Below are positions 21,912 through 47,044 of a DNA stretch of 64,000 bases, one piece after another. The number at the start of each line of letters is the position of its first letter. Within the stretch, counting starts at the first letter, position 1. Below the pieces are notes generated by a model, which saw only the letters and a list, made by a program, of their open reading frames with translations, was not told where the DNA came from and did no database searches. The stretch is taken from the NCBI GenBank assembly GCA_050084515.1, contig CM114271.1, forward strand, positions 34,224,001 through 34,288,000. The letters are read 5' to 3'. This DNA is from Blasia pusilla (taxonomy: Eukaryota). Position numbers and translations under genes: made by a program.

Positions 21912-23190
21912 ATGGTGTTGTGCGAGTCTATGCTGCTGTCTTGTGGTAACGGAGTGGTGCAATTCTCGAGGGCAGGGAGTTCGAGGGGTAGAGCGGCGGC
22001 GAGCTTGCGGACGAGCGGGGCTGGTAGGGTTCACTGGAACGGTTGCGGGGGTCCTCGTGGTGGTGTGATCGTGAAGATGAGTGCAGCGGCGTCGGATGGA
22101 GAAGGTCCCACCGCTGCTGTCACCAAGGGCGCTGCTGATGATATCAAAACGGTCTCTCTCTCTCTCTCTCACACCAAGTTCAGATTGCTAAATTCGTGTA
22201 CAGGTGTGGGGAAGCTTGGAAGCTAGAGACGATCACCAGCATTAGAGGAGGTTGTCAGACCTCTTTGATAATGTCTCTTGTTTGAACCGTCGCACACTTT
22301 GCAAATCAGACTCCCATGTCCCAATTGGGTCTCCGCTGATAAGTTCTGGCGTCTCTTTGTGTTTGTCGGTTTGGAACCAGTGTCGTATCCACCTGCTCAA
22401 TTTGGTCTCACCCTGTTTGCACATCAACAATTTGCAGAATCGATAACTCTATCGACTGTATTGAAGGTCTGCATAGACGGATCGGGGTGTTTAGACTTCG
22501 ACATGGGAAACTTTCCATCCGTGACCCTCTTGTGGCCGGTGTTTACGTTCGCCGGTCAGAAACTTTTGAGCTAGAGGACCATCACAATCCTACTTTTCAC
22601 CTGTAGGGGTTCGCAGCCAAACTAAGGTAGCAGGTCTCGTTCAAGGGTAGAAACCTCTGAGTTATTGACATTTGATGGGGTCTCCTGTTATAGCAGGATG
22701 ATCTCAGTTCCATCAAATTGTTTTGTTTGATTCTTCTCCCTTGCATAGTCAATAGACTTCATGGATTTCATGTGTGTGTGGACTGCGTCAGCTGAAATCC
22801 TTCTGGTGAGAAGATCAGACTATCAAAGGTTTGTGATGGTGATGATAAGGAATTATCAATCTAGGAGTGTGGGACTGCAAGAGTGATGGTGTCACTGAGA
22901 CAATTTGCCAATCCCACCAGGTGAGCGTGCGCATTAAGGGGAAAGTTCAAGGGGTTTTCTACCGAAACTGGACTGTGGAATCAGCAAAGCAGCTGGGTGT
23001 GAATGGATGGGTGCGAAACTGTAAGGATGGCTCAGTGGAAGCTGTGTTTTCTGGGAAACCCACTTCTGTGGATACACTGATTGACAAGTGTCATGGTGGA
23101 CCCTCCGCAGCCAGAGTCAGCAGGGTGGAAGTTTCTGCCTGCAATGATGCCATTCCCCAAGGATTCGAGCGCAAGCCTACCATATGGTGA
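21912..23190 (+). CDS. Acylphosphatase with probable organellar transit peptide, 2 exons
   Basis: Exons 21912-22151 and 22921-23190 with a phase-0 GT-AG intron. Signature GKVQGVFYR...GWVRN.KDGSVEAV. Ser/Arg/Ala-rich N-terminus. Confidence 0.92.
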
Positions 23191-24491: not shown

Positions 24492-27488
24492 ATGGATGCC
24501 CTCCTTGCTGCGTATGTTTCTGGCTCTGAGGACGAGGATGATGGCCTCCATGAAAACTGTGGTGGGAATTCCACTGAAGCTACCAAAATTTCTCTCGGGG
24601 ATGAGAAACGAAGGAAGATGATGGGAGCGGAGACAGAGGTGAACTGCATTCCTTCGGTGTCTTTCTGTCCAAAGGATCCATCTGCAGGAGATACGGTGGA
24701 GGAATCTTTTGCTCCCGGAAAAATTATGTCTGTGGAGCAGCATAGGCAACATGCCAACAGTGGCCTTTCCTGCTCAACCGGGCGTTATGTGTCCAAGAGA
24801 GAGAGGGCTGCTGCTGCTTTAGCTGAAGCTATGTCCTCGCCATCTTCTTCGGTCTCTCCATCACCTGGTTCTTTATCTCCCAATTGCTCTTTTCTGTTCC
24901 AGTTGAGATAATTGATGTTGAAATTATTATATTCATACAGACTCACTCACTATGAAGTCGCATCTATATAGATCTTCTCTTCATCATTTTTGTGAAGAAT
25001 CCTGTCAGCCGAACTGGGCGGCTCAGGAGAAGATGTGAATTTTGAATTGGTTTCAAGAATTCAGTCATATGATGGTGTGTGTGTTTGTAGATTGGAATCC
25101 TATTTGAATCCCAAGTAGAATTTGTAGTTCTGGAAGAGATTTAACTAATCATGGCCGAGTTCCTCTTGCATCTGAATCAGATTGTGGGAATTGAAAGCAT
25201 AAGGACAGGGGGCTTTCCTCATTTTAAAGAAATAAAGTGTCACCCACAAATAATGTAGATTGAAGCAAATTGTCATGACCATGACCATCAGAGGTTTAGG
25301 ACATGGTTGATCAGAGTTCAAGTCAAGACCTTTGCAAAAGCTTGGGGAGGTGGCTCCTCTCCTGCCTCAAATTTCTCAGCCAGTTGAGCTTTGCATGCTG
25401 TTGGCCTTTGTAGTCCCAAGAGTTTGTTTAAGAGAGCTGGTGCTCATGATCCTTATGTGGTAACGAATGCAGTGGGGAAGAACGTTTTGAGTGCACAACT
25501 GCCATATTACATCCAAAAGAAGCTAGAAAATATTGATCCACATGCTGTAAATTTCAACCGGCTTCCTAAATGTCTTGTGTTCAAGCTAGAAGGCCACACT
25601 AAGGGTGTCAATGCTGTGCGCTGGTCTCCAACTCACGGTAAGTGCATTTCCTTGGAGCTGTAAGAAAAGAATTGAGAATGCTGAAGATTTGGGAAATTTT
25701 TACACTTTTCATGAGAAATGGGAATTTTGGTAGCTTTTGCTTCCTGAGACTGTAGAACACCAGTTAAGTCGTGGCAAGTGACAGTAGCAGTTCTACCACC
25801 AGGTGTTACTCACAGCCTATTGGGTTTAGTGGTCAATGTGTTGAACCAGTTTGGGAAGTATTTATTAAAGACTCGTAAGTGCAGATCAAACATTGGTTGT
25901 TATTATTTCATGCCTTCTACTATTGCAAAATCATTGGAACATAAACCAGCACATGATTGTCCACCACTTCGTTATAATGGGATAAATAAGTTGACTAGAA
26001 CAATAGTAGTGGGTCAATCCGGTTGTATGATCTTGAGGAGCTTGACGGCCCCTTGTGGATGTTTTGGTTCATACTTCCCAGACCTCGGCAGGTTCTCCGT
26101 ATTGCCTCAATAGTACATCAGTCATGTGGGATTTGATTTGATTGAAATCTGAAGTTGGCTGATAAAAATGTTTCCTTCATTCCAGCCTCTTTGCTTGCAT
26201 CAGCTGGAATGGATCACCTGGCCTGTATCTGGAATGTCTGGAATGCACCAGGCCAGCAAATGGTGCAAAAGATTAGTTCTCACACTGCAGCTGTGAAAGA
26301 CATACAATGGTCCATCCATGGCACATCTGTGATTAGCTGTGGATTTGATAAGACAGCCAGGCTGATAGATGTTGAGTATGGAACAGAAATTAAGGTCTTT
26401 CCAGATGAGCAATACATGAATGTTGTCAGGTTTCACCCCCTGGAAGATGGAATTTTTCTGTCCGGAGGATCTAGGGGTGCTCTCAAATCATGGGATATTC
26501 GAGTTGGAAAGCCTGTGAAAGAGTTCTCTAAAAGCCTTGGACAGATCATGGATTTGGATTTTAGTATGGATGGGAAGCGGTTTGTTTCTACTTCAGACAT
26601 TGCAAAGCGGAATGCAAGTGACAAAGCAATTGTTGTGTGGGATTATAGTACACAAATTGCCCTCTCGAATCAGGTATTTCTGAAAGTGCTATGACCCATG
26701 CATGTGCTCTGAGTCAATTTCTGAACTTGTTCAAGAATGCCTTGCTGTATTGTTTGGTGACATGCAGTGCAAATAATTCACTATTTACCTAGAGTGGGCA
26801 GTCTCGCTGCTGTAGAGCTGGTTACATTTGATGTCCCTTAAGTGAATGTATTGTAAGCAGCTTGTGTAGGTTAAGTTTCAATTAAGGGCAGTCTAGAAAT
26901 GGGTTTCCTAGGATTACAGGAGCCAGACAATTCAATTTGTTACTCCTCACCTCTGGCAATATATTAGCCAGGTAGTAGGACTTGCTATGGCTTATGTGCA
27001 GAGTACTCTACCCAACCTCACTAAACCATACTCCAGGCATGATATGATCTAACATTAAAAAAGGTGTGCAGAAATGAGACAGGTGCTGAGAGTAACTAAT
27101 ATCTTGGATTGCTCAGGTTTATCTGGAAGCGTACACATGTCCTTGTGTACGATATCACCCCTTCGAAGATAGCTTCATTGCACAGTCAAATGCCAACTAT
27201 ATTGCAATATTTTCTGGTCAATCGCCTTTCAAGATGAATAAATATAAGCGCTTCGAGGGTCATCAAGTTTCAGCATATCGCATTCAATGTAATTTCAGCC
27301 CTGATGGAGCATTTGTTGTGACAGGATCTGCAGATGGATCTGTTTACTTTTACAGCTATGGATCTTCCAAACTCCTGAAAAAACTTGAAGCTCACCACCA
27401 AGTCTGTACAGATGTGTCCTTCCATCCTGTTTTGCCCTCTGTGATGGCTTCTTGTAGCTGGGATGGACTCATTAGCATATTTGAATAA
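24492..27488 (+). CDS. WD40-repeat protein, WDR25-like, 4 coding exons
   Basis: Exons 24492-24867, 25473-25637, 26186-26673, 27117-27488. Begins MDALLAAY and contains GRYVSKRER. WD repeats include GHTKGVNAVRWS, LLASAGMD, HTAAVKDIQWS, YLEAYTCPC and ASCSWDG. Confidence 0.88.
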
Positions 27489-30309
27489 AGGACAAGAAAA
27501 TTCAAGGGAGTTGATTGCCTAGTGTCTACACACATCTTTTGGTTTGCATAACTTTGTATTCCTGATAATTTCGAGCTCGTACAGCCTTCAGAACAATGCA
27601 GACAAAGAAACCTACAAAATCAGGCAGGAACCCAAGAAATGAATAGACTCTCGCATAAACCATGTTCTAACTACAGCTCTCTGAGAGTGACATTCATGAA
27701 TTAAACCGGATGGATAGAAAGAGATGAGACCAAAACATCTCATCTCATCTCATCTCTTGAACCCCCTCTTGGCCTTAAGCTTGTAAACTATTTCTGCCAG
27801 ATAAATCTGCCAAGAGCAGGACTCTGAGATATGTCATTCCGGGTAATTTACAGATGAGTCATTCGGGGTAATGAAGGAGACTGTTGATAATATGTACCCA
27901 CCTGGCAATGTCTGCTTTTCCTCGACAACAATCTTACATTCAAATGTCACCAGCTGGATGGCGATGTAAGGAAGCATGCCACCCAATCTGCGACGTAATA
28001 AGAGGAATTGCTTTCTACCTTCGCAAAATTTCTTAGTTTGAGAGTATTATCTTGTACTGAATGGATGCAAAAACCAATTCGTGGTAGAGACAAGACCATG
28101 AGAAAAGTCAAAGAATCTCTTCTTTGAACGAGGCCCTTGCTGTTTGCAAGGGAGAACAACCTGATAGAGGCATGATCGTGAAACAATCATCTTTACTCCC
28201 AATTAGAAAACCAAAAATTTTGTGGTTGATATGACTCACTCTGGTGTATTGTGCCATACTAGTTGACGACTTAGAACTCTTTGGGCAATGTCTTGTGAGA
28301 GTTGTTGCACTTCTTTCCTTATACTTGTATATAATGTGCATTCACATTTTTTCTTGAGAAATAGTTTCTCCTCACTTTCATGTGATTCTCTTCTCATTCA
28401 CATCCGGAGAACAATTCACTTTTTCAATACAAGCTTTGGGAACAAGGGAGTTCACTTGGGTAAGATCATGTGTACATTTTCGCTCTTTCTGATTAGAATT
28501 GGATGGAACTCTCCACATGAAATGTAGAGGTTGTAGGATTTCACATTTCTATGACACAAAGATCCCTGTCAGAAGTGACCTCATCCATATTTGAACTTGC
28601 AGATTGTGTTTAGATATTGGGTATATGTGGGTGAGTTGCAGGTCTTTGTCCGGGTTGGCCATTGTCATTGAAGGTATTGGTGTAGGTCCAATCTTTGGAA
28701 TCACTCATATTGTCAACTCATAATTATAAACTTTCTTTTGCTAGTTATCTATGCCGCTATATACATAGCTTCAATTCCTATGGAGTACCCTCATGAAAGT
28801 TGACATTATGAGAGGTTGCAAAGATTGTACCTACATTAGCACCTTTGATGAAAATGGCTGATAATCTCTCTCGCCTATGAAGGTTGGACAAAGAGGAGAG
28901 AATTATTTACGTATTATTAATGAGTAAGAATACTTAAATCCATCTAAAATATGCATATATAGAATGATACACTCTTATGCAAAACTTGGAGTTTCGCAGC
29001 ATTTCCACCTCCATATCTAATTTCTTCCTTACTTAACGTGTGCAAGATCTGACTTGTTGTTGTCGAGGTCCTTTCACACCTTGGCGCTTACCATCGCCGC
29101 AAAAGTTTGCAAAAAATCAATTAGTCTCGTCGTCACAAGAGTGGAGGATTTCAAAGCCTTTTGCATTAGTGTTGCAAATGGCTTAGTCTATGGCACTCAT
29201 GCTAACGAGGACCCATAAAGTGATCCATCATCGTAGGTACAAGGAGGAAAGACCTTGGTGTGACCTTTCAAAGTTGGAACCTAGACTAGGTAGTTGCAAG
29301 ACTAGGAATGACAACAAAATTAAATTAAACCAGCTTCGGGACTAACACTAGGCGAAACACGCAAACGATACTGACCTTAGACGGGGAGTAGCTCTTCGCA
29401 AGGATAAGGGCAAGGCAAGCAAGGTGTGAGAACTTTGAGCTAAGATCCAAATCAAAGGCGAGAAGTAAGGAACATGTGAGTAGATAAGACGCGTGAGATG
29501 CCATAAGACTAGTTATGAAATGCAATGGATTGTAAGAGAACCACCACTCGCCGAATGGCAGGAGTTAAGACGGGTATAAGTCATGAGACACATGAAACAC
29601 GGATCCAAGCTCCAAGATGCATTTCAATAGTTAAGAGTTGCAGAATCTATAAGAACTCTCGCCCAAGCTATCTTGAGAGATAGTTAGGCAAACGTGGATG
29701 TATGGGTCGCTAACCACATTTGGGTTGAGGGCCAAAATCAATGGCCTCACGAGGATAATACAGAAAGCGTGTTTCCCGTGGAAATCTCCTGAAGTATCTA
29801 TAAGGGAGACACTCTCCCTCTCTACCCGCTCAAATCCATGAAGAAGGAGCTAATTGTAAAGCGTGTTTGGTTGTATTTTAGGTTTGAGCTAAGGGACCGT
29901 TTGGAGTATACCTTGAGGGATAAACAAACATGCTCTCGTATAGACGAGTAACTTGAGGAGATTGGTTGAGGCTTGGGGAAGAGGCTTCCGAGGGAGATGG
30001 TAAGCACTTGAAGAGACTTGATTTTATTAGCTATAGGGGGCTTCTTGACTACCTTAGAATGAGTAATCAATTACGTCTTTGAGACTCAAACCAAAAATTA
30101 TGCTTATAAAGCTTAAAGTTGGACGTGCTTCGTGCAAAAGCAAGGAGGAGTAGATGTTGAACTCAATGACGAGTGATATCCAAACCAAGGTTACTCAGAA
30201 ACAAACATGTGCACGGACATGCCCAACGAATCCTCCGTCCAGGTTTTTTCGATACCACGTTGGCCTGTGCGAGCTTGGGACGAGGAAATGGGTGCGGGCT
30301 TCGATTAAG

Positions 30310-32378
30310 GGATAAAGAAAACTGCTAAAGAAACATAACTGATGGAATACGACTCTCACACTCATACACCACCATGGAGAGCAAAATTTTGCAATGAAAG
30401 ATGTGAGTGGAGGGTGATGCTCTTTTCAATTATATAGGGTATGTATAAGCAACCCTAACCCTAACCCTAACCCTAACCCTAACCCTAATCCTAATCATAG
30501 ATATGAGTTAGACTAACTGTCATTAACTAATCATTGTTAAGATAATCACACTTAACTTATTAACTAAGATTAAGCTTTCCTACTTCGTGTGAGTCCTAAA
30601 TGTAATAGTTCGGATGTTCGATGAGCTTCACTATAACTCAGTCTTCAATACTCTCCCTCAAGCTCATATCGATATCTCTAACACCTAAATCATTTCTAAA
30701 CATCCCAAACTTATCTTTAGACAATGCATTTGTAAAGATATCAATAATTTGTTGATCTGTACCTTTTTACACAAGATCAATTTCTCCTACAAGCACTTTT
30801 CTCTAAAATGATAGTGCATCTTAACATGCTTTGTTTGAGGAGGAAACACAAGGTTGTTAGCAAACTTGAAGTTACTAATATTATTTTCCTATATTATACT
30901 AGGTCTTAAGTTACTAGCACCAATCTCAGCAAGTGATCGATGAAGCCACACCAACTTAGATGCTACATTTGATGTTCCTCTATACTTAGCCTCTTTTGAA
31001 GGTAATGCAACTGTAGGTTGCTTCTTTGTAGCCCAACCTATAACTGCGCTTCTCAAGATAAATGAATAACCAAATATGGAGAGTCTATCAGATACGTTTC
31101 CTACCCAATTAGCATCTATGAATCCATCTAATTATAGAATCGGGGAAGGTTCAAATTGAAGCCCGCATTGAGCAAAAAATTTCACATATTGCATAATTCT
31201 TCTCACAACATCAAGATGAGGGTTTCGAGATGTTTGCATAAATTTGCTCAATAGGCCAACTGCATAGCTCACGTTTGGCCTTGTTATAGTTAGATAGACT
31301 AAACTTCCGATCATGCGCGTGTACATATTAGAATCTGCAAGCAACTCTCCTTCATCCACTCTTAACTTCATACGCTTGTCCAATGGTGTAGAGATTGGCT
31401 TACAAGCCGTCATGCCATATCATGTCATACATCCTACAAGCCGTCATACAATATGCCGTGAAGAGCATATTGTCATTGTAATAACCACATTCTCTCTCCA
31501 ACTCTGATAAACTCAACACCAATTAAGGAAATACTTGAGTTCTTTCAAGTCCTTCATATTAAATTCTGCCTATAACTTTAGCTTGAGTTATTGTATTATA
31601 TCTTCAATACTCCCAAAAATCAAGAGTTCGTCAATGTACAACACAATGATAACTATATGACTTTGTCCTCTCAAGACATACATGAAGAGTTAGAATCACA
31701 TATCCTAAAGTTCTTGTACGACGTACACAATCTTTGTCATACCAAGCTCTTGGAGCTTTCTTAAGCCCGTGTAGAGATTTCTTTAACCTACATACACGGA
31801 ATAGAAACTCTTGATGCTTATATGTAGGTGGTTGAATCATGTATACCTCCTCATATAGATCTCCATTCAAGAAGGCATTCTTGACGTCCATGTGATGTAA
31901 TCTCCACATCTTACTTATTACAACTGCAACCACTATTCTTGTAGTCGCCATCTTTGCAACAAGGGTAAATTTCTCCTCATAATCAATGCCATATTGTTGT
32001 GCATAGCCATTGGCTACCAATCTAGCTTTGTATTTGTTTACTATATCATCTTGATTACGCTTGACTTTGTAAATCCATTTGCAACAAATAGTTTCCTTGC
32101 CGGAAGGTATATCTACTAGCTCCTAGGTCTATTGATGTCCTAATACAAAAACCTCTTCCTCCATAGTTTCAATCAATTTCACCTTGCTTACAACTTCTTC
32201 AAAATAACTTGACTCATGTTCTTGAAGGGTGGTTATCATACATGCATGATGTGTTGCAAGGAATCTTTCATTTATGAATCTATGAATAGGATGTGTGACT
32301 CTACTTGATGTATGAAGTTGTTGTTCACAAGTAGATGCCTATGACATTTTACTCAAGCTTTAACTAGTGTCAACAAAT
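30310..32378 (-). mobile_element. Decayed Ty1/copia retrotransposon, 3' part (RT, RNase H, PPT, 3' LTR)
   Basis: RT motifs KARLVANGYAQQYGIDYEE, HHMDVKNAFLNG and LKKAPRAW; MIGSLVYLTITRP; RNase H KKQPTVALPS...AKYR. Polypurine tract TGAGGGAGAG at 30660-30651, with the LTR starting at 30650. The left LTR boundary is approximate. Many stops and frameshifts. Confidence 0.9.
30453..30494. repeat. (CCCTAA)6 + TCCTAA telomere-like tract inside the copia LTR
   Basis: Read directly; hexameric TTAGGG-type unit. Confidence 0.9.
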
Positions 32379-35300
32379 GTACGTATCGTAGAAGCTTCTT
32401 CAAAGCAAGAGAACACTTTCCTATCATCCTCAAGAAGACCCAGTTGGATAGCAGCCTCCCTGAATGTTGGATATAATATCCCATGAATACTTCTCAAGCA
32501 TTCGTATGTAGTTGCTTGTCGAACAAGATGTAGGATTAATCTCAACCAATGACGTTCTCCTTCACCTACAAAGAAGTAAAATAGTTTAGCTCATCCCAAT
32601 ATAAATACATTGCTTTAGAGGATGGTAAATAAGCAAATATATATACAAAGAACTTTTGAGTATTTACCTGGATGAGGAAGGTATAAGCGGCCAATGGGAT
32701 GACCACAACCATTTATATTTTGTACCCTACAAATCCATGTCTCGTTACTCCAACGATAATATGTCGGAAAATCTGTACATAGATATTGTCGAGCATTGGA
32801 CTCAAATAGATTGGTTTCAAACCATTTGGTCAAAGTTATCTCCCTTTTTAGTTGCAAAATATCTTGAGGAGCGTCAACATCATTGAAGTACACTAATTGT
32901 TGCTCCGGAAGATGAATTGCTTATCGCACAATACTTGAAAGTTCAACATTTAGACTAAACTTGAAGAGACGCCAACATATTGCAGAAGAAGATATAAACC
33001 TGGAAAAAATAAGAAGTCCAAGTATTAGAGTATGGAGAATGAAATGAAGTTCATAAATAAAATATTAGAAGATTGCATCAATTAGAAGAATCATACCTCG
33101 CATCAAGAAATGATGTTGTCTCGTCAATAACGTCAATTGCGTTGGATGTATCCATATCCTTTGACAACTTAAGGGACACTACATCAAATCCCTTATAAAC
33201 AGATTTGTATAAGAACTTCACTTCGGAAATATTACATGTGATTTCCAAATTAATGTGACAATCGATGAGGGTGCATAACATAGGATTGTAAGGCACAACC
33301 CAACGATTATTGAATGAATGTTGGGACTTAATAATCGCCCTTCCATTCTCCAATCTACAAAAATACAATAAAGAATCATGAATACATTGTCATATTACAA
33401 ATAAGCCATTGATATTGCCTTATTATAGATAAGCCAACATAAAAGGATCCTTACCTGTGATAAATCGGATAGCCATATTCTGTCTCTATAATGATCGTCG
33501 CAAAAGCTTTAGGATAGCCTTTTGTACATTTTTTTGTTTCCTTGTCCAAACATGGGGCATTTGGATTTAATGGTCCACATGGCCCATGAACCATACAATT
33601 AGCAACCGTAGCATATAGCCTTGGATGGATAGATTGATCAGGGATTTCGGTTGAAATAATACGATCATAATTAGAAGTGGTATGTGGTTTATCCTCACGA
33701 CCTAAAATAATAAGTGCATGCACATGTGGAAAATCTATTTTTGGAATTCCACCACATTGATACATCCTACAATTCGACCCAATATCTACTTCTTGACGAT
33801 AAGTCCTAACAACTCCTTCTTTTTCTTCTAAAAAACCCGCACAACCCAATCAAGTCGGTGTGCAGCAGTTTGGCCATGTAATAAGGCGGATGTAATCTCC
33901 TCCCACTTTGGATTGCATGTCATGGTCAAAAAGTAGTCTGGCTTCCCCAAATGTCTTACAATTGCCATCGAATCTTGATATCATTGATGCATATGACGTG
34001 GCCATCCAATAAAAAAAGAAGATAATATAATGCTTCTCCCAAACCTTCGACTATCAACATCATAACAATGCATGATATCCTTTACACCTTGATATAATTC
34101 AGCCCTCAACTCCTTCAGATTTACGCAAACCTATGATAATTTTTGCATCTCTACATTGGCATAGAGGTCAACCATATATTCTTGAGTAAGTCAACCAAAC
34201 CCCTATAAGCGATTTTCATCTTGTCCTCCAATTTGTGTTTGAATTCGAAAACATGCAAATTACAAGGCCGCAACACTCTTTGTTCTTCTTTCCTCAACAA
34301 TATCACCATCACATTTTCCTCATCCATCCAATCCTCCAATATCTCCTCCCCACGAACAATATGGCCTGGTGGTTGGGATTCTCTGTAGCCTTCGATTCTC
34401 TCAAAGGATATTCCAAGATGCCAACCTGCTTCACGATAGATAAATAATAAAACAAAGTGTAATGAAATGTACACTTCATTGAGGTCAAATATACGCCTCA
34501 CTCTCCTCCGTGTAGACGCACAATTATATCACGATGGTCGACATGTTCACTTTCATACCCGGGAAAAATAGCAGCAACTCTAGAAGCAACTGGTAAGTTT
34601 TAACGCTTGGCATCAAGACCTTTCTTACTTGCCTTGAAGATGATCCGCATACTTAGATCCCTTGCTTCATATGCCATATGACGAAAGATCTTAACATATG
34701 GATTGCATTCATGTAACATGTCTTATAGACCTTTCAAAATATCTATATTAAGATCAGAAGATCTAGACATACATCTACCACGATTCTCCAGTTCATTTGC
34801 AGTATCATGATTATAGAGTTGAGAAAATTGGGGATGCCCCCCTATATCATGATGTAAGAGTCCAATTGAATGATAGATCCCGCCTTGGACCCTAAAATGT
34901 CCAATGCCACCAATTTGTTCATTGACATGCACTCTAGTAGATGCAAATTGAAGTGCATAATTGTAAGCTCGAGCATGTCTTAGAAAATGAAGACTTCTAG
35001 GACCAACACCCGAAATCAAGGACTTTAGGAATGGTAAATATTTTCCCATGGCCACAACACATGCCATAGGGTGAGTCACTAAACTTTGTACCTTTGACCA
35101 TTTCGCATTTCTAATGTAAAGCACGGCATGAGGAGCATATCTCTGTCATGGAACCCAATGTATGACGTCCATTGGTACGATTCAAACTCCTTTGTAATCG
35201 CAACTTCCTAACATCACTTTCTTGGAAATTTAGTCTCCTTGCAAGATTGAGGGATGTATTTAATCTTGTGATCCTATTAACAATTATACTCGTCTCGTAA

Positions 35301-35400
35301 CATTATGTCCCAAGATTTTTTAATCGTCGATAATCTTGAAAATTCCCCTTTTCCTAATATCATCTTGCCATTTCCTTGGAAGAATTCCCATTGCAAACTT
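32379..35400 (-). mobile_element. Helitron RepHel pseudogene, 5' half (Rep/HUH domain) with introns
   Basis: RHARAYNYALQFAS, FRVQGGIYHSIG...PQFSQLY..DT.NE, IAIVRHLGKPDYFLTMTCNPKWEEI, PHVHALI (HUH), MVHGPCG..NP.APC, NRWVVPYNP, KFLYKSVYKG, TFREAAIQLGLLEDD. GT-AG intron-like gaps, e.g. ~33454-33356. The 5' boundary is approximate. Confidence 0.9.
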
Positions 35401-35757
35401 ACCACTTACTGATACGCTCTACAACAAGTCAAGAAGGAAATTGTTAAATATCATTCTCCTAACTGCAAATGTATTCACTTGTAAAGATTAGTCTTGTAAC
35501 AAAAAAAGTAAAACTGACCTGAAAATTCATGAAGTTCATAGAACATTGGCTTAAAGTTGCTCCAGAGTGGCTTTTTGAAACTTACTTATTGAAGTAGGAA
35601 TATTTGTGTTAGGGTAGTTACCAGACTGTCATGAACCGTCAGCTCCAAACAAGCTAAAAACTCAATTAGTCTAGTCATCATCATTAGAGAAATAAAGAAG
35701 ACGTGCTAGTAACTTCCCATTGCTCGCCATTGTAGAAATCTGAAACGAACATAAATA

Positions 35758-36350
35758 CTATGATAAATGAGACAAGGTCTTGAGAACCTTAACTATGTAC
35801 AAAAAAATCTCTTGGTACCCTAATATCCTCAAGTTCATTCTACATGATATTCTAGACAACATACCATATGTAAGGTCATATGTAAAAGAACTTTTCAACA
35901 CAACAAGGCATGTGCCAACTATAGTGTTGCCTTGAGACTTATGTGTTGTTATAGCATATGACAACATGAGTGGAAAAGTGTTCTTTGTGTAAATGAACTG
36001 AGATATTCATCTATTGACTTTAACTTAAGTATTATTGCAAGCTAATTGAATGACTCTAGTTTTTACACTACCCTTGTGCAACAAGATTTCTTTTACAAAA
36101 CCTAAACAACCATTTGTTGCTCCTTTACTTACTTTAGGTTGTTAGTTAAGACTACCTTACAGCCTATTGCTAAAAAAGGTATCTGATGGAAATCACCTTC
36201 TTCAATCCAATATTGTAAACCCTCCACACTATATGCATCAGACTCTATAGAGATAGAAATGATGTCCGCCTCGCCAAAAAATCATCTCAAACATATAGTG
36301 TTGAATATATATATATATATATATACTCCATGTGAACATTTAATTGTAGT
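35758..36350 (-). pseudogene. PIF1-type SF1 helicase C-terminal fragment, distinct from the Helitron helicase
   Basis: VGCKVVLTTNLKVSKGATNGVVGFV...FPLMLSYAITTHKSQGNTI...TYGMLSRI; contains in-frame stops. Confidence 0.75.
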
Positions 36351-38099
36351 ATCATTATTTATAAAGTCTAAAGCCAGGTCATTGAAACCATGCATACTTT
36401 TTAGCATAGGTCAATGTCTTCTTAAGAGGGTAATGCGGATGGCAGAGTTGAAGACCCATCACGACATCAAAAGCAAGATGTGAAGCTAATAGTGCTCTAG
36501 GCTCCAACTCCATTCTTGTTAGGCTCACGATCGTCGTAGTGTGTAGTATCCTTCCAATCAGGTTTTTAAAATTGACTACGGAGGAGAGCAAAGATACAAA
36601 CTACGCAGGTTTACCATAATGCACAAATAAATGAACACAAAAGTCTAAAAGCTAGCTAACCTTCCAAAATGCAGACACCAAACGATGATCACGGAGAAAA
36701 CCAAAAAAAAAATTTGCAATAACAAAGCAACAGAGAAGACACTACACGAATATGCAAAAATCTATGAAAGCTAAAAGTTGTTCAGATGGCAGAGTCACAG
36801 ATTGAGTAGTGAGAAATAGTGATGAAGTTTTCCAATGAGTGTAGCCAAGTACTGAGCAAAAAAAGTGCAAAAATGCAACAACGTGCTAAGAAATCAGGAG
36901 GGAATGTTCATGCAACACGACTAGTGATTGAGAGCACCACGCAAAGAACTAAAGGTAGTATAAGAAACACAAGTAAAGTCGTAACATCGCTCGAGATAAA
37001 ACATATCAGTTTACTATGACGATATATCAACTTGAACACTAAGACACGAGGTCCGCATAGACTCGCGAATAGAGATGGAAACGCAATGATGGTGCTTCAT
37101 GGGTCTTATGGAGTTTAGAAAAGTCAGAAATAGAGCATCTGCAACCCGCCTTATGCATGGGTGTAATGAGATTGTATTTTTGCATGTTCCCCCATAGATG
37201 TCTACTACTTCGAATTCTGAGCTACAACATCACAAATACTCAAAGCTCCAAAAGTAAATGGATTGTCTAAATAGTCCCATTTACACTTTACATAAAGGTG
37301 GATGTAAGACATCAGCAATTCGAGAGGCTAACCAAGAAATACTATTAATGGTCATGGATGTGACTCAAGTGAGGATGTATGAAGCTACTCCTTCCTTCGG
37401 ATGAAAAGAGAATACATCCATAGTCTAATCAATGTAGATTCACAAAATAAGTCAAAGCATCGGACAAGAGTTTATAAGGCCACAAGGGATAAGGTGGAAC
37501 AATGTCAGGTTTGCCACAAGATTTGATGAATTCATCCTAATCTATTGAGGTGTGTGTCAGTGTTTGACTAAGTCACTTAAACAAGAAAATTTTAGAGCTT
37601 TTGAAAATGAAGATGGATTTATCTTCATTTCTATAATTGTTCATTGCAGTTCGATTGTGGGGTCCTATACCTTATTTGAACTCACATACACAGGTTTGTT
37701 CCAACCACAATCATTGTAGTGGAGCTTTGGTACTATAACATCGCCAAAGCCACAATGAACGTAGAACCTAAGTCTAGTGACCGGCCGCCAATCGAGGGCA
37801 TTGGGAAGTTTTGGTGAGAGAGCATGATATCCAAGTTGAAGTCCATCCTCACACAAGGGTTTACAGCTCATACAAGCAAGTATTAGAAGCGACCGCTCTT
37901 ACCTCTTACCTTTGCCATCTCTTACCTCTACCTTGATGGGATAATGCAAAGGCAGAGTTGAAGACGTTAACGTTGCTGCCTATGTTGACAGTTACTAGAA
38001 ATGCATCTCCAAGCTATTACACAAACAAAGGAATCAATGAGTTAAGTGACGTGAAGCTAGGCTACATGTGTTTCATGCCAATCACATGAACCGCCACAC

Positions 38100-39440
38100 G
38101 ATCGAGTTGTTGATTAAATATCTCCACACATCCGCCTATCTGTCCAATTGTCATGCACATCCTTCTTGGCAAGCATGTGACATCTCCACCAATCTTGTGT
38201 CAACCAAGTCATGGATCCTACTCAATCACCCTCTCCATATCATTGTACATTTGAGGGTCGTCAAAGATTGTGTCGCTAGACAACTCTATGCGAATCCCTG
38301 GTCCCTTTAGTGTACCCAAATCATGCATACTAAATGCAAAATAGCTCTTATAACTCCTCATGAACTTATGTATCCGGTGCCGCTCTCCTCTTGTCAACTT
38401 AGGTTCCATATCTATCTCCCAAGTCTTCATCGTGACTACGGTAGGACTCTCTAGCGGGTATAGGTCATTGCTATGGTACAACCTCGTCTCGCATAAAGAA
38501 ATGGACTCCTTCCCTACAACCAACTCCAAAATTCCGTCTCCTCCATGTGCAGTACCCAAAACTATGCTCGATGTTGTGGCTATAATCTCTCGATGTACTC
38601 GCAAAACATCCCAAGAAGTCCAAGGGTGTCTCTCTTGATCATCCCCGACATGTTAACCTCCTCAGGTCTCGCCCCTCGTCACTATCTCAATAAGCATGGG
38701 GCTCACCAATGCAGCAGTTGTGACCTATCGCAACCTCATCTGACGTTGCTCAACTACTCCCAAGTTGATGATCCATGTCAAGCAGTTCAGGTCCATTGCT
38801 TGACCCAAGACATGACGTCGTGATGCCTCTGATAATGATGGTACGGCATCATCCCTTTGGGAAATCCCATTGCTTCATCGGCGTTGGGCTCCACCAACCA
38901 TTGCATCTAGTCATCCCAAACCAAGAACCGGCTTCCTTGTATGCATAAGAACGGAAAACACACAACGTGAGAAAGTGGCATGTTGATTGACCACATTCAA
39001 TAGCGTTCGATCATCGTGCCTCACTACTTGTGATCAACGATCTTGATCTAGAATGGAATCCACCAACAAATAGGAGGGGCGCTCCATTCTCACATATGCC
39101 ATCGAAACACCTCATGTGACATCAAGTTGGTCCACCAAAGACGTGGGCGATGTGCTTGTGAACCTACACTAGTCGACCGTTCCATGCATACATGATGTGC
39201 ACTTGTCACCACCCTTGATATGGAATCGCCCAAAATTGGTACATTCTCCACAATGTAAGCTAAATATCGGAACTGATGCTCCTGCAATTGTTGCAAGATC
39301 CTCATTATCTCCGAAAACAACATGGATTGAGTGTTAGCTAACTCACGACCTCGTCTAGCACTCAACTTGCCCATACATGGCCAACCAGCAACGACCAAAT
39401 CAATGGTCCCTAATTGTAGGAGGCTCGAGGAATCGCAAGA
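38100..39440 (-). mobile_element. Ty3/gypsy-type pol relic with a C5-cytosine DNA methyltransferase domain upstream of the RT
   Basis: MTase motif IV IDLVVAGWPCMG, VI YIVENVP, VIII GSQAHRPRLWWTN, IX EPNADE/AMGFPKG, X RRHVLGQAMDLNC. These are followed on the same strand by pre-RT/RT start YKSYFAFSMHDLG...IRIEL, DLVDTRLVEMS and AKKDVHDNWTDRRMCGD. Frameshifted and truncated at both ends. Confidence 0.82.
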
Positions 39441-39519
39441 GCACAGAATTACATGAATGAGTACGAGAATCGAACACAATGCCTACTGTTACAAACTAAA
39501 CCTTTGCACAAATCCTAAC

Positions 39520-39617
39520 GATGGCGGAAAGTGCCTACAAATTTCCCAAGTACTAGTGGTTGATTAGGAGAGGTTCTAGATTCTTTAGTTAAATCTGTCA
39601 ATCCATGGTCAAGAAGA
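39520..39617 (+). mobile_element. Displaced upstream piece of the copia element (other side of the inversion)
   Basis: Reads KSVNPWSRRV up to GTAC at 39618. It would join the copia sequence left of 32379 if the inversion is reversed. Confidence 0.5.
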
Positions 39618-41963
39618 GTACGTCTTCACTTTGTCCTCTATTTGCAATTATTCTAGCATACAATACACCCGCTCAACCTACTACACTATGGAGTTAATTT
39701 TTGGCTCCATTGGTAGAAGATCTCTTATATGAACGACGTCAGGTAAGAATTCTATATTCACACTTCTTACATTATTTCGTTTCTTCCTAATAGTATCTTG
39801 TATTAAGCATTCAACATACTAACCATGATTTGAACACTTTTTGGAACTCTTCCATCGCAAAAACAAGAATTCGTTATCTTATTGTTGATGTTGCCATCAT
39901 TAATATGACATTGTTGGAAGTCCATTATTATTTATAAGATCAAGGAAAGAGACTATATGACTTTCCGGACATGCCCCAAGCTAATTTCCAAAGCCTTCAT
40001 TCACAATCATATTTAGAGGAGCTATTATATGATGGTGTGCGCCCTCAAGAGGGCCTTGAAAGAGGCCGGAAGGAAGAATTATTTGAGCAAATGCAATTGG
40101 AAAAAGTATATTTGAATGAAGGACAACGTATTATTTGGGACGCTATACATGATGAGCTTGATCAAATAATTGTGAATGCTCCTCCATCTCCAAAAGTGTT
40201 TTTCATCGATGGTCCAGGTGGAGAGGGGAAAACATTTTTATATAATTTTCTCCTTGCAAGTGTAAGGAGTCCAAGAGGAATAGCTTTGACTGTAGCGTCA
40301 TCTAGAATAGTTGCTTTATTGTTAGATGGAGGATGTATTGCTTACTCGCGCTTCAAGATCCCCATTAATCTTCATGAGAGCTCTACTTGCAAGTAAGTTC
40401 CATTAGTGATTGCAAATAGCTCCAATTAATATGTTGATACGTAAAATTTAATTACCCAAAGTTTTACAATTTCCTTTTTTTTAATTTGTGGTTTATTAGT
40501 CGATAATGATGGAGCGCGCTTAATCCGTGATGCGATGCTCATTATATGGGATGAAGCCCCTATGGGTCATTGTCATGTGTTTGAGGCCGTGAATCAAACT
40601 TTACAAGATATTATGGGAGTTGTTTAGGATGATCTACGGCAAATTACCATTTGGTGGAAAATTTTGGGTATTTGGTGGTGATTTTCGTCAAGTGTAGCCA
40701 CAAACAATCCAATCCACCATAAAGCTGTCATCTCTTTGGTCTTATGTAAAGGTATTGAATTTGATAACAAATATGCGAGTTCAAAGGTTGGAAGGTCATT
40801 TGCGTAGTGAACAACAAGGATTTGTTGATTGGTTATTGGAAGTGGGAGAGGGTGTGTACCTTTGCACCCTCATCTGGGAGAATACTTTATACGATTACCC
40901 ATCAAAAATTGTCACTAAAAGTAATAAGATATGTGATCTTATTGATTTGATCTATGACAATTTTCCTAGCTAATTCTATGACATTGATTTTTTGAGAGAT
41001 ACGGCAATTTTAACTATGCAAAATAGAGATGTGGATGACATTAATGCAAATGTTATGTCTTGGTTTCCTGGAGAGGTAATCCTTCTAATATATATACAAT
41101 TTTTTTCTTATGGGAGCTTTCTTTTTGGGAACAAGGGTGGATAATAATATAGTAGATCTCACCAATTCATTGCATATTGTGTACATGAGCATATTTACGT
41201 CAATGTCGACTCTATTTCGAATGAGGGGATGAGTCATATCTATCCAACTGAATTTTTGAACAAATGCTTGCCTTTCGGACTTCCTCCTCATTGTTTGTGT
41301 TTGAAGATTGATGCACCAATAATGCTCTTACAAAATATGAATGGATCACATGGACAAGTAAACGAGATGAGATTGGCGATTCGTGGATTCATGCAACATT
41401 GCATAGATGTTGAAATTATCCCAGGGAAGAATATTGGAGATCGAGTATTTATTCCACATATACCATTGATTGCATCGGATTCTGGTTTGCTATTTGATCT
41501 ACGTAGGTTTCAATTCCCTATTCGTCCAACTTTTGCTTTGATTATTAATAAGTCTCAAGGTCAAACATTGCAAAAGGTTGGCATTTACTTGTGTACTCCT
41601 GTATTTTCTCATGGTCAATTATATATAACATTATCTAGAATAGAGAAAAAATTCCATCCACGTTATTATTGGAAGTGATGAACATTCAAATAAAAAAAGT
41701 GACCAAAAAATATAAGATATAAAAAGATACACAAATGAAATAAATTCTGAAATAAAAAAGGTGACCAAAAAATATAAGATATAAAAAGATACACAAATGA
41801 AATAAATTCTGAAATTATATATTACTACAGTGTCTTCTTGATTTGTTTGCCTCGAGTGTTGCTAGAGGCAAACAACTCTGTATTTGACGATAAGAAAACA
41901 AATTTATATTTATTAGCATCAGGCTCCTCAAACACTTTTTTATCTCCACAGGCACCTTACTAG
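39618..41963 (+). mobile_element. Helitron RepHel pseudogene, 3' half (PIF1-like helicase) and probable 3' terminus
   Basis: LFAIIL..TP.QP..LW; Walker A FFIDGPGGEGKTFLY; IIWDEAPM; GGDFRQ; NMRV; QFPIRPTFALIINKSQGQTL; PVFSHGQLY. Intron-like GT-AG gaps (~39742, ~40393-40499). Possible end CACAGGCACCTTACTAG|T at 41963. Confidence 0.9.
41688..41815. repeat. 62-bp tandem duplication in the Helitron 3' region
   Basis: GACCAAAAAATATAAGATATAAAAAGATACACAAATGAAATAAATTCTGAAAT occurs at 41701 and 41763. Confidence 0.92.
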
Positions 41964-42274
41964 TGTAGATTATTTTTAGTTCAAAACGAGCTCCGAAGGG
42001 CACGCTGCAGCAGCTACACACGACAGAGGCGAGGCATAACCGCAGCAAAATGTGGGTGGATAGCGAGCAGGGTACTGTGTCGGATGCAGCAGACGAGCTC
42101 CTCTGTACAGAATCCCACAGTGCACGGCGAGGAGAGAGAGAGAATTAGGAGGGACGGAATTGAGTTGGAGAACCTCTGGTGCAGAGAGGAGAGAGAGGAT
42201 TAGAAGCGACTATAGACGTTGAAACCAGCAGCAGTAGCGAAGCTCTAAGCGGTGACTGAGTGATCTCAGGAACA

Positions 42275-45272
42275 ATGGTGACAGCAGTAGGAGCAGTCGC
42301 GCATGCGGCGATGGTGGCCTCGCCCATGTCCTGCGCCACCAACAGCTCGCCGGCTCAGAAGCGCGCGTCCACTCGTGTGTCGAGCTTCATCTCCGGCTCG
42401 AGCTCCAGCTTCCGCGGGCAATCTGTGTGCACTTCTCTTCGACCTGCGGAGTTCCAGTCCAGGAGGACGACGCAGAACTCCAGGCCCTCTGTCAGGACGG
42501 TGAGGGCTGGGGGCGCATCACCCAGCTCGTCGTCGTGGAGCGCACAGGACTCTGTACGAGAGCTCTGCCTGAAGCAATTCGGAGCTCGCAAGGCTCTCAA
42601 GGTACGCAGCTCATTGGATCTCGTCTCTCGCATTTGCGTTCGCCAGATTGCTGCCCAATCCAGTCAGTTGTGGTCGTCTGTGCGTCCTCTGCTGACAGAG
42701 AAGGAGGAGTGGACTCATGTATAGCGTCCCGCCTACAGGTCATTGCAGGGCTCCACAACTTCAATCGCGAGAACGTTGCAAATGTCGTCATTGCTGCTGA
42801 GAAGGTATGCTGCCATATCTATGAAGTGAGTGAAAGACCAAAAAAGAGTCCACTTAGTGGAGAAACCCATCAAGGAAAACACTGTGGGGACGTGATGGAC
42901 CATAGAGGAAAGACCACGAGCAGCCGAAATGGGGAGGGGAGAGTCCCCTAAATAATAAACCCTCCCAACAGCAGTAGGCAATGTGTGAGAGTCCTAGTTA
43001 AGCAGAGCTACCAAGAAGACTATCCTAAGCTAGAATCCAGAGCTTTTGAGGGTGCCTAAGAAGCCTACATTATGAATCTTCACTTCGTTAATGTGGAGAC
43101 TTTTTGATGTAGCGAAGTGATTGATTGTCCATGGGGATCCAAGAAGGATGTGGAGCCTGAAATTTTCAGAATCTGCAGGGAGGGACCCTGCTGAGGTTGT
43201 TGATCAGTCGGACGGAATCTGTTGATTCTTCTTCTTCTCAGAAATTGGTTGGGGAGGTGGAATTTATGCAGCTGGCAGTATCAGATTCTGATGGAAGGCT
43301 GTGTGTCTGGCAGGGAGGTGCTACACATGTAGATATTGCATGTGATGTGGATCTAGTTAGACTGGCGGCAAGTCTGACCAACCTGCCGGTAAGAAAGTCA
43401 AAAGATTTGCTGCCTTGAGGGATTTGTTTACAAGGCTAAAGGTGTTCATCTTGAAATTCTGTTGCAGGCGATGTTTGTGTGATGTATGTGTTGACTAGTT
43501 GCCCTGGAAAGAAAGTCGAGCTGTGGCCCTAGGATGGAATTGCAAATTTTGTTTGGAGAAGAGTAACTCTTGTCTTGATAATACTCTGCTCAATGCTTGG
43601 GTAGTTGATCAATTTGTTAGCTTGTTACCCTCCAAAGGAAAGTGAGCTGTGGTTAACAATGAAAATTGCAAACTTTGTCTGGAGAGCTCTAACTCATCTT
43701 ATTTGAGAGCTGATGAACACATGGGTGGTTGACCCTGAAATCAGATCTGCGTGTCCTCGGTGGAGCCTGAAGCTTTTGTCCCAGCCGTTGAAGCTGGAGC
43801 TCACATGGTATGCTCTTGGCCTTTTTTACGTCCTAGTAGTCCATATGGATGCAGATGCAGTCCAGTGATGAGCACTGATGTACACTTCAAGGGACCATCC
43901 TACATCAATGATATCTACTAGACTTTTTTTGCAGACAAATTTAGGCCTTGACTGTCAATGGCAATTTTTTTCGATAGTTCAGCTGTCTGGTTAGTTACCA
44001 CTCTTAAGTTGTGTCCTAAATGTCTGCCACTCTTTCACTTGTTCAGGTGGAAATTGGAAACTATGATGGCTTCTACAGCACTGGTCGTGTGTTTTCAGCA
44101 GAAGAGGTGAGGTTACCATTGAAAGCCATACAGTTTACTCCAGAAACCGTCTCTTCTTTTCGACAGAAGAGTTGCTAGAACTCGAGAGTAAACGTGGATA
44201 GAGAACTACTCAAATAGAGTTTTATCATGAAATAAAGAAATAACAAATGTTTGTGCTGCTTTTCTTCTGCCAGGTTCTCAACCTCACCAGAAGAACGAGG
44301 AACTTGCTACCTAACGTGGTTCTCTCAGTGACAGTTCCCCACACCTTGCCTCTTGATGCACAGGTATCTTAGCTAGCTAGTACTTCATCCGTAGCTTTGC
44401 GTTTGGACAGTCTCGTTTATTCTGAACTACAATGCTAAGCTTGGAAATTCCTCCCACTGCAGATCTTTTGTTGCGATACCAATATTTGGGATCAGTAGCA
44501 AAGACTAAGTGGAGGTTATGGTAAAAGACTTTGTACTGAACAAATTCACTCTTGTCGTGATACTGACAGGTTTGTTTTCATTGATATTCAGGTTAGTCTT
44601 GCAGAGATGCTAGAGGAAGCAGGTGCAGACTTGATCCAGACAGAAGGTGGGACAAGCTCTGCACCCTCCGCACCTGGTGTACATGGCTTGATTGAGAAGG
44701 TATGGGTTCTTCGAAACGTCTTATGAAGGGGGGAAAATGAGGTCATGTCTTATTAGCTGAATCTGCAGCATCACAGGACTAGCTTGAATCCCCCTTAAAT
44801 GCATGCACCTGTCTAAAATGTTAAAAAACTCCAAGCTGTGGTTGAATTGGCACTGTGGACGCATGGTAACATTGGCTTGTGTTGCAGGCTGCTCCAACTT
44901 TGGCTGCAGCATACTCCATCTCGCATGCAGTGAAAGTTCCAGTCATGTGTGCCTCTGGTCTGAGCGTGGTAACTGCCCCAATGGCCATTACGGCTGGTGC
45001 TGCGGGTGTGGTAAGTTCTCTACTCGTCTCTTATGGTATTCAAGGCGGCATTGTGCCTCAACTTGTAATAGATATGAGGGGTTCGCTTTTATACCGTTGA
45101 TCATCTTCTAAAAAATGTTGATGTGTATTGCTTGCAGGGCATCGGCTCCGCTGTGAACAGACTAAATGACCAACTTGCCATGATAGCAGCTGTTCGAAGT
45201 ATTGCCGACTCGTTGGGCCTACCAGCAAGGTCTGTGGAATCTACAAGTGTTTCTTCAGCGGTAGTGAACTAA
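42275..45272 (+). CDS. ycf23: Ycf23/DUF561 family protein with plastid transit peptide, 9 exons
   Basis: Exons 42275-42601, 42739-42804, 43314-43388, 43745-43807, 44047-44106, 44274-44363, 44592-44699, 44888-45010, 45138-45272, all with phase-0 GT-AG introns. Motifs ALKVIAGLHNF, GGATHVDIAC, ICVSSVEP, VEIGNYD, SVTVPH, DLIQTEGG, CASGLS..TAPMA, GIGSAVN. Confidence 0.92.
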
Positions 45273-47044
45273 GAGAAAATTCTAGTTCTGATGCATCGAG
45301 AAGGTGCGTTGTATCAACAGGTAGTGAGTGATCATGCTCGTTCAGCAACACAGCAAGAAGTTCTCCCGGATGGAATGAGTTGTAGAATTTGGAATTATGC
45401 TCCGGGGAGATGTCAGATGGAGTGCAGTGATTTGAGAGGTTTCTGTTTCATATGGAGACTCATACATGTATGTTTCCAGAGACCTAAATGTTGAAATCTT
45501 CGTGCTCTTATGGCAATTTCCAAAGCTTTCCGCACATCCTCCAATGTTAGAGACATTTAAATCTATCATGTTTTCTATAGAAAGGCTCACTCTTTTTCTG
45601 TGGGTTTGATGGTATCTAATAATGGACTACATATTTCATTCAATCCTGGTTTTTAAATTGACCGGGTCCTTAGTTTTATTTAAATTGTACTTGGTATTTT
45701 TTATGGTTTTTGCTTTTTGGGTAGAAGTGGCAAATTATCACTTTTGGCTCAATCCTACATTTTAGCAATCAAATGGTACATTTTTGCAATAATAAATGGG
45801 AAAGTGACAACCCAGCGACCTCCTGGGTAAATGATTTCTATCAAAATGGTTGCTAAGGGAAGGTCTCAATTGGTAGGTGGGTTCTCTAGCTTGGACGAGT
45901 TAGCCAACCTGGACACAAACCTGGACACAACCTAGTGGTAGATGGGGATGGAAAAACAAAAACCTTTGGCAACACTTGGCATGGCAAACTTTTAGAGTAT
46001 GCATGTCTGGTGGTTCACACTTATATATAACTTCCCAAATTTTAAATATACTTTAGAAATGTGTTGCATTACACACGTACAGGAATATGTCAGCAAAATG
46101 AAATGGTTTTTTATGCAGCTAAATCAAAATTCTTTTTATTGGTGACACTTCACTAGTAGAATTATGGAAAATGGAATCCATATGATTATTAAAGGTAGAA
46201 ATGTGATAGTTTTCATTGGATCCTTATTTGAAAAAAGGAAACTTATCAGAAATACTTATTTCAAAACACTTCAACTCTATAATTCTGAAAATAAATTACA
46301 GTTTGATCTTTCTTTGTAGAATACTCAAGAAAATATCAATAATATAACTACTTCCAACTAGATCTAAAATTATTCATGACAAACTGATGTCAATTTGGTT
46401 TTAGAATCTTATCTAGACCTAAGATAAGAGGAGGTAAAATTCAAATTTTGCATTCAAACCCAAAGGGTTTTATGGCCTTGGCTTCTTAGACTAACTCATC
46501 GCACAAGCACTAACTAGCATAGATTGGCTAATTGGGATAGATGTCAAGAGGAGAGTTGTTCCAAAATAGAGAAGGGGTTTTGCAATTATAATGCAGATTA
46601 AACAAAATAAAGATTGTAGGCAACATGATGAGTCCAATGTGAGTATTTGTACATGAGCCTAAGTCAAGTGTCTAGTAAAGATACACTAATGATATCATTA
46701 TGAGAAGTGGTAAGGACCTATGGGGGGATTAGGTTTTTTAGAATATCAAAGTTTTTTTACAACCTAGCTATTACAAAGCACACTCAATGCAATAGCAACC
46801 ACTCAGGTTAGATTGTAGAGGAAAGCACTAGACAACATGTATCACCTGACAACCCAGCATTCTCAAGCACACTTAGTGCAGTAGCAACCACTCCGGTTAG
46901 AAGCAATAGACATCTCAATATCAACCACTCAAGTTAGTACTACTAGACACCTTGCATCACAAGACTCACTCAACCCCTCAAATGAGTAGACCTCTCAGTT
47001 TGTAAGCAATAGCACACTCAATGCTACTCAATTAACTCCTTTGG

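Follow-up and report, generated by a model that had tools for sequence, protein, structure and literature searches.

The window analysed here is a stretch of 64 kb from a liverwort genome, and each of the 2795 pieces of its six-frame translation was searched with profiles. It contains, on the minus strand, a ~1.4-kb internal fragment of a Ty3/gypsy-type retrotransposon with the order gag-PR-DNMT-RT-RH-INT (PR, protease; RH, RNase H; INT, integrase), truncated at its 5' and 3' ends. By blastx, homology to the closest relatives runs from 39431 to 38099 (minus strand), in agreement with the 38100-39440 of a preliminary description of this DNA, and the match to one Closterium protein, P0020, reaches up to 39536. 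The features of this relic are given below, all on the minus strand; each motif is placed by its first base, i.e., its highest coordinate.

38099-39536, minus: whole relic (DNMT motifs IV to X, linker, RT motif 1), from blastx, a library match and profiles
39090-39482, minus: 130-aa open frame with DNMT motifs IV, VI and VIII (family profile, E 2.6e-22)
39386, minus: motif IV, GWPC, catalytic Cys kept (conceptual translation)
39248, minus: motif VI, ENV (conceptual translation)
39149, minus: motif VIII, RPRLWW(TN) (conceptual translation)
38850-39108, minus: decayed target-recognition region into motif IX, with frame changes and stops (blastx chains)
38891-38859, minus: motif IX, EPNADEAMGFP, with EPNADE at 38891 and MGFP at 38870 (conceptual translation)
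38728-38874, minus: motif X piece, VLGQAMDLNCLTW (family profile, E 7e-6)
38805, minus: motif X, VLGQAMD (GQAMD) (conceptual translation)
38218-38652, minus: 144-aa open frame, the DNMT-RT linker, HPWTS...TWEI...FAFSMHDLG...RIELSSD (linker profile, E 4.6e-6)
38628, minus: linker HPWTS (conceptual translation)
38340, minus: FAFSMHDLG, within the 144-aa open frame (conceptual translation)
38099-38221, minus: start of the RT including motif 1, AKKD...RRMCGD (linker/RT profile, E 0.053); homology ends at about 38099
38170-38120, minus: RT motif 1, with AKKD at 38170 and RRMCGD at 38137, after a frame change

The C5-methyltransferase motifs run in the canonical order IV-VI-VIII-IX-X, spread over three frames, and no intron-sized gap interrupts the reading of the relic; the order and the lack of evident introns, both noted in the preliminary description, are borne out by the motif positions and by the family profiles. 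A DNMT-gypsy polyprotein profile run against the 2795 pieces matches 39482-39093 (E 2.6e-22) and 38874-38728 (E 7e-6). The two best pieces for the linker profile, 38652-38221 (E 4.6e-6) and 38221-38117 (E 0.053), adjoin each other and are collinear, the third-ranked piece of the window standing at E 1.9. The start of a gypsy-type RT on the same strand, also described before, is thereby recovered by the linker/RT profile and again by collinear tblastn matches. The proposed PF00145 search succeeded in part: the 130-aa frame matches this Pfam family at E 2.9e-4, but its 20.8 bits lie under the cut-off of 22, and a Pfam scan of the other four pieces of the relic returns no family.

Motif I had been reported missing through truncation of the copy, and this holds, both ends being cut and neither of two profiles detecting the motif. 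Upstream of 39482 the more distant profile (N-terminal, Closterium and ENA sequences) gives only E 0.15, beside motif IV, and the best value of a close-clade profile on read-through tiles is E 4.5, elsewhere in the window and at noise level. A likeness to motif I seen by eye at about 39600-39700 is supported by neither profile and was rejected. Motif I is kept in relatives such as P0003.

Decay is advanced throughout. The blastx chain of the relic against a close relative, locus L007, crosses six in-frame stops and at least five frame changes; chains to P0005, L003, L007 and L010 switch frame at 38850-39108, with one to six stops per HSP. Profile searches detect no gag, PR, RT beyond motif 1, RH or INT of the DNMT-gypsy family in the 64 kb, and no second fragment of this family lies in the window (a different gypsy element occupies 62-64 kb). 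Neither LTRs nor long direct repeats are present within 30000-46000, and split direct repeats of the form A-internal-B-A-B do not surround the relic. CpG values show nothing out of the ordinary (0.69 for the relic, 0.52 across the window) and were not used as a mark of past methylation. The window copy is dead and inert, as the preliminary description had it; it does nothing now, because its other parts are lost and what remains is full of stops and frameshifts.

The relic lies in a transposon-rich patchwork of truncated elements, and the following features are found elsewhere in the window.

22849-23190, plus: 113-aa open stretch, acylphosphatase-like by eye
26146-27488, plus: WDR25-like WD40 gene, intron-bearing (exon 26146-26694 compared)
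31631-32122, minus: Ty1/copia-type RT fragment, 163-aa open stretch (by reading only)
33451-36281, minus: Helitron Rep and helicase relics, outside the element (ORFs read by eye)
39938-41678, plus: Helitron/PIF1-type helicase relic, outside the element (ORFs with P-loop and C-terminal helicase motifs, read by eye)
41688-41811: A-rich 62-nt unit in two tandem copies (98% identity), immediately following the Helitron helicase relic of the plus strand
62173-63998, minus: Ty3/gypsy RT-RNaseH-integrase, largely open (frames of 419 and 218 aa), running off the window end

The idea that the last of these is the missing half of the relic was considered and dropped: with only 29-32% identity to the RT and INT of the DNMT-gypsy family, it belongs to another lineage. 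The Helitron relics on the two sides of the DNMT-RT relic have opposite orientations. A Helitron PIF1 ORF also adjoins the DNMT-gypsy copy in a related locus, L003 (4490-5449).

Helitrons can capture gene fragments, and the relic, cut at both ends, lacking a terminal repeat and having Helitron helicase relics on either side, might be a DNMT-gypsy piece that was carried in by a Helitron rather than the eroded remnant of a local insertion. This origin is unlikely, as the flanking Helitron pieces point in opposite directions and are each truncated, and nested insertion with deletion gives the same picture; the family of the source element is unchanged either way.

Relatives of the relic were collected from proteins and from metagenomic loci. 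An exhaustive HMMER search of a protein library with the 130-aa ORF yields 158 proteins at E<=1e-3, 13 of them at E<=1e-10; P0009 (3868 aa, 10 stretches) is a false match, being a bacterial Ig/cadherin repeat protein. The named relatives of the relic's DNMT are P0005 of the liverwort Calypogeia fissa, whose contig measures 13 Mb, and a number of Closterium proteins. The nearest atlas cluster to P0003 has 57 members and carries PF00145, and its commonest recorded taxon is Streptophyta, which is taken as no more than a lead. In a look-up of sequencing runs, five entries contain 6-11% of the sampled words, none of them listed as RNA.

Retroelement domains are present in 19 of the 26 long library matches scanned with Pfam, in two layouts. 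In layout A the DNMT lies between the protease and the RT. The arrangement foreseen in the preliminary description, gag-PR-DNMT-RT-RH-INT in one ORF, is seen in P0085, P0157 and P0162, each of which reads CCHC zinc knuckle-PR-DNMT-RT-RH-INT in 2138-2327 aa; P0027 comprises DNMT-RT-RH-INT, and P0035 and P0037 comprise DNMT-RT. In layout B the order is RT-RH-DNMT-INT(-PHD), with the DNMT after RNase H and often a PHD finger at the C-terminus (P0066, P0069, P0071, P0086, P0097, P0103, P0112 and P0148; also loci L072, 398-6496, and L073, 4860-11405). Layout B resembles the relic in carrying a related DNMT (against the window ORF, E 1e-3 to 1e-6) within a gypsy Pol, but differs in its position, since the DNMT of the relic precedes the RT. 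Layout B has intact reading frames of 2033 and 2182 aa, borne on contigs rich in GC (0.53-0.65). An uninterrupted frame of 1775 aa is also found in P0011 (a JGI record); it opens with a start Met and continues across gag (CCHC at 429) and protease (DSGA at 1027) to a complete DNMT (1276-1610). This protein, of the clade next to that of the window, may stand for a member that is intact or was active until recently.

The segment between DNMT and RT is itself a family character. It can be aligned across the Closterium and ENA polyproteins and the window, and the unusual RT motif RMCGDYR is common to all six polyproteins aligned, the window keeping RRMCGD. Homology of the linker is detected only by profiles, those of layout A being built from four Closterium proteins and two from ENA assemblies, and by tblastn on fetched loci; when the 144-aa linker ORF was searched by word matching, 125 candidates came up, none at E<=0.01.

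Metagenomic loci extend the comparison. A first scan with P0003 alone gave 45 pattern matches, none confirmed; a second, run with alignment A1 of the closest proteins, brought up 186 stretches that were confirmed as related, from which 80 loci were kept. The DNMT is present in all 80, and tblastn with the four pieces of the window (130-aa ORF, motif X piece, linker and RT start) matches 80, 47, 45 and 42 of them, respectively, collinearly within loci. The 130-aa ORF reaches 47% identity at best (E 2e-32), the motif X piece up to 78% over 37 aa, the linker about 41% over 134-139 aa (best E 6e-25; 57% over 72 aa against L002), and the RT start up to 89% over 19 aa. In L007, for example, the four pieces lie at 1711-2061, 2326-2460, 2551-2931 and 3016-3072. 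Loci of layout A are mostly decayed, the longest frame across a DNMT being 847 aa (L023).

Host plant DNMT3 and DRM genes are multi-exonic and not fused to an RT, and the arrangement in the window could in principle have come about by chance, through a processed pseudogene of a host DNMT3 that came to lie beside a gypsy RT fragment of other origin. Unrelated pieces of truncated transposons do abut in this region, and Pfam support for the DNMT piece by itself is weak. The preliminary description had named unlinked methyltransferase and RT in other copies as the observation that would count against a composite element. Among the loci with at least 1500 nt of downstream sequence, however, linker and RT start follow the DNMT directly on the same strand in 45 of 48; of the remaining three, L037 carries an internal deletion, and L072 and L073 are of layout B. 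Upstream, gag/PR lies just before the DNMT in 47 of the 61 loci with at least 1500 nt on that side. The four pieces thus recur in the same order and spacing on the same relatives, across a linker that is itself homologous (E 6e-25) and into an RT with a family-specific motif, and together these observations effectively rule out chance juxtaposition, to which we assign a very small probability. The DNMT and RT of the relic are best read as parts of one element.

Split direct repeats occur in three of the six long relatives examined, L023, L036 and L045, each of which has one repeat A (~290 nt) upstream, and B-A-B downstream, of a ~9-kb gag-PR-DNMT-RT-RH-INT element. The A copies are ~8.8-9.6 kb apart and 91-92% identical. 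The repeats lie at the following positions.

L023: 5711-6002 and 14382-15035
L045: 5304-5596 and 14336-14958
L036: 4906-5194 and 14348-14997

As for the other three relatives, L076 has an A pair only, direct repeats are lacking in L044, and a tandem array is all that L064 shows. In L023, L036 and L045 a DIRS-like repeat layout accompanies elements having a DDE integrase.

The methyltransferase class can be read from profile comparisons and motif order. For the METHYLTRANSFERASE class, a profile of the close clade searched against PDB matches DNMT3A/B/C at ~1e-19, DRM at ~1e-10, with DRM matches spanning only profile positions 15-141, and M.HaeIII/M.HhaI at ~1e-6. DRM motifs are circularly permuted, as stated in the text of de Mendoza et al. 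(2018; PMC5890265). The DRM-type order, VI-X before I-V, is not that of the window, which reads IV, VI, VIII, IX, X; the earlier statement that the order is canonical, not permuted as in DRM, is upheld by motif positions and profile values alike. By these profile matches, the DNMT of the relic is DNMT3-like and not DRM-like.

A maximum-likelihood tree (LG+G4, 378 profile columns) was built from 48 rows, picked by hand from 262 sources of DNMT matches so as to cover the clades seen in a 76-row FastTree, with host liverwort DNMT3 left out. The window groups with the L003 group, L002 and P0005 of Calypogeia fissa in a clade with bootstrap 99; the rerooted tree prints no support for the node of window and L003 group alone. 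Closterium forms a clade of its own (bootstrap 100), as does layout B (99), and the node uniting all plant-like layout A copies has a support of only 61. The processed-pseudogene alternative raised earlier fares poorly here: the relic's DNMT is joined to linker and RT and nests among element-borne DNMTs, rather than being a stand-alone host gene copy, in a tree that does not include host liverwort DNMT3. This nesting also weighs against the chance-juxtaposition reading. Between lineages, DNMT identity is close to RT identity (43% vs 50% for L002 and L023; 39% vs 45% for L002 and a Closterium protein), and catalytic motifs are kept across lineage distances among the relatives. Since DNMT identity tracks RT identity and the catalytic motifs are retained, the DNMT has long been a constrained part of the element and not a passenger.

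The host of the relic is best considered together with its neighbours. Named full-length relatives are algal (Closterium), and the contig or fragment might accordingly be of non-liverwort origin, either a contaminant or a very recent horizontal acquisition from an alga. This is extremely unlikely, because the same 64-kb window holds the intron-bearing WDR25-like gene, which is closest to that of Marchantia: the exon at 26146-26694 shares 77-78% identity with M. paleacea and M. polymorpha, 66-67% with Riccia, and 64% with both Calypogeia and a lycophyte. The liverwort of the window is accordingly nearest to Marchantia without belonging to that genus. Moreover, the relic is heavily decayed and therefore old, its nearest named relative comes from another liverwort, on a contig of 13 Mb, and Closterium falls in a separate clade with support of 100. 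Plant genes also lie beside other copies. From loci of at least 9 kb, 170 candidate ORFs of at least 130 aa outside the element were gathered; 60 of these, taken from the longest 120 with near-duplicates dropped by eye, were scanned with Pfam, of which 8 have a family and the other 52 none. They include PPR-E-DYW on L023 (DYW E 5e-40), NAC on L031 (1e-26) and MYB-CC on L055, which are gene types of land plants or streptophytes.

The liverwort window, together with the grouping of the relic with the Calypogeia fissa protein at bootstrap 99, makes the presence of the family in embryophytes hold, and the description of the relic as the remnant of a DNMT-gypsy family in embryophytes is supported. 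The relic, its Calypogeia relative and the many copies beside land-plant genes show that this streptophyte Gypsy-DNMT3 family also lived in land plants. No report of a land-plant DNMT-retrotransposon was found in the full-text literature, a search whose scope did not extend to subscription journals and supplements, nor was a published description of the Closterium DNMT-gypsy elements (full-text literature, without supplements). In the parts consulted of 2025 MBE papers, of a 2026 preprint on an adenine-methyltransferase element and of Yaari et al. (2019), the only streptophyte case given is that of Klebsormidium from 2018. What appears to be new is the embryophyte host range; the kind of element is already known.

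The relic is very probably a dead fragment of a Ty3/gypsy element whose Pol carried a DNMT3-type domain between PR and RT, residing in a liverwort and belonging to the streptophyte Gypsy-DNMT3 kind. Elements of this kind appear to occur in Klebsormidium, where they were first described, in Closterium and in Calypogeia fissa, and in many copies beside land-plant genes. Within the family the DNMT would be translated as part of Pol and would travel with RT and integrase; it would most likely methylate new cDNA or the insertion site de novo, an idea put forward for DNMT3 domains in Pol in the text of de Mendoza et al. (2018; PMC5890265). A broader proposal is offered only tentatively and is rather doubtful: that Gypsy-DNMT3 with split repeats is an old, vertically persisting streptophyte lineage, extending from Klebsormidium through Closterium to bryophytes and amplified to many copies in one land plant or more, where some may still be intact.

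If this proposal is true, transposon-encoded de novo methyltransferases act, or recently acted, beside host DNMT3, DRM and CMT in embryophytes. Retrotransposons with the class of enzyme that hosts use to silence them have been described in dinoflagellates and one charophyte alga. Two questions can be put: is an element's own cDNA methylated, or the methylome of its host disturbed, by an element-borne DNMT3, and have host and element DNMT3 genes been swapped in plant evolution? Both are testable, since the land-plant pathways (DNMT3, DRM, CMT and RdDM) are well studied and bryophytes are genetically tractable. In practical terms, annotators of bryophyte assemblies should be aware that an orphan gene model labelled 'DNA methylase' may be a piece of a transposon. 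It is the family, more than the copy of the window, that is of interest.

Several known systems invite comparison. Host DNMT3 and DRM share the catalytic fold and motifs with the relic's clade, whose profile fits DNMT3A/B/C best; they stand without an RT, whereas the DNMT of the window family is contiguous with gag/PR and RT. Retrotransposon-borne C5 methyltransferases are described from dinoflagellates as SymbioDIRS-Dnmt3 and SymbioLINE-Dnmt, independently acquired (PMC5890265). These differ in element class, the first being a DIRS with a tyrosine recombinase and the second a LINE, unlike gypsy; they are set apart here by the description in that paper, which also agrees, as far as its text goes, with the earlier listing of dinoflagellates and one charophyte as the prior cases.

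The Closterium polyproteins P0020, P0025, P0027, P0035 and P0037 resemble the relatives of the relic in the order PR-DNMT-linker-RT-RH-INT and have, as in the window family, a homologous linker and the RT motif RMCGDYR. Their DNMT is only 36-40% identical to the plant-like L002, L003, L007, L020 and L023, and they form the separate clade noted above.

Among the closest known systems is KnitGypsy-Dnmt3 of Klebsormidium nitens (de Mendoza et al., 2018; PMC5890265), a gypsy element whose Pol ORF includes intronless DNMT3 domains; according to the legend of Fig. 4c of that paper, its repeat layout is one of DIRS-like split direct repeats. Klebsormidium sequences are absent from the matches of all searches, and kinship to KnitGypsy-Dnmt3 is drawn from class, architecture and repeat layout, not from direct alignment; the text of the paper does not give the place of the DNMT within Pol, so order is compared only loosely. 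The host of KnitGypsy-Dnmt3 is an alga; here it is an embryophyte, a liverwort, and the copy is a truncated pseudogene. The relic shows the DNMT3-class domain with non-permuted motifs and, intronless and contiguous with a same-strand RT, its position in Pol, for which P0157 and P0162 provide single ORFs; the rest of the gypsy set (gag/PR upstream, RT-RH-DDE integrase) is found in relatives, the window keeping only RT motif 1. As far as the published account of KnitGypsy-Dnmt3 goes, it and the window family have in common an intronless DNMT3 domain with non-permuted motifs, a gypsy Pol ORF and a streptophyte host, and its A-internal-B-A-B layout with gypsy domains recurs in L023, L036 and L045.
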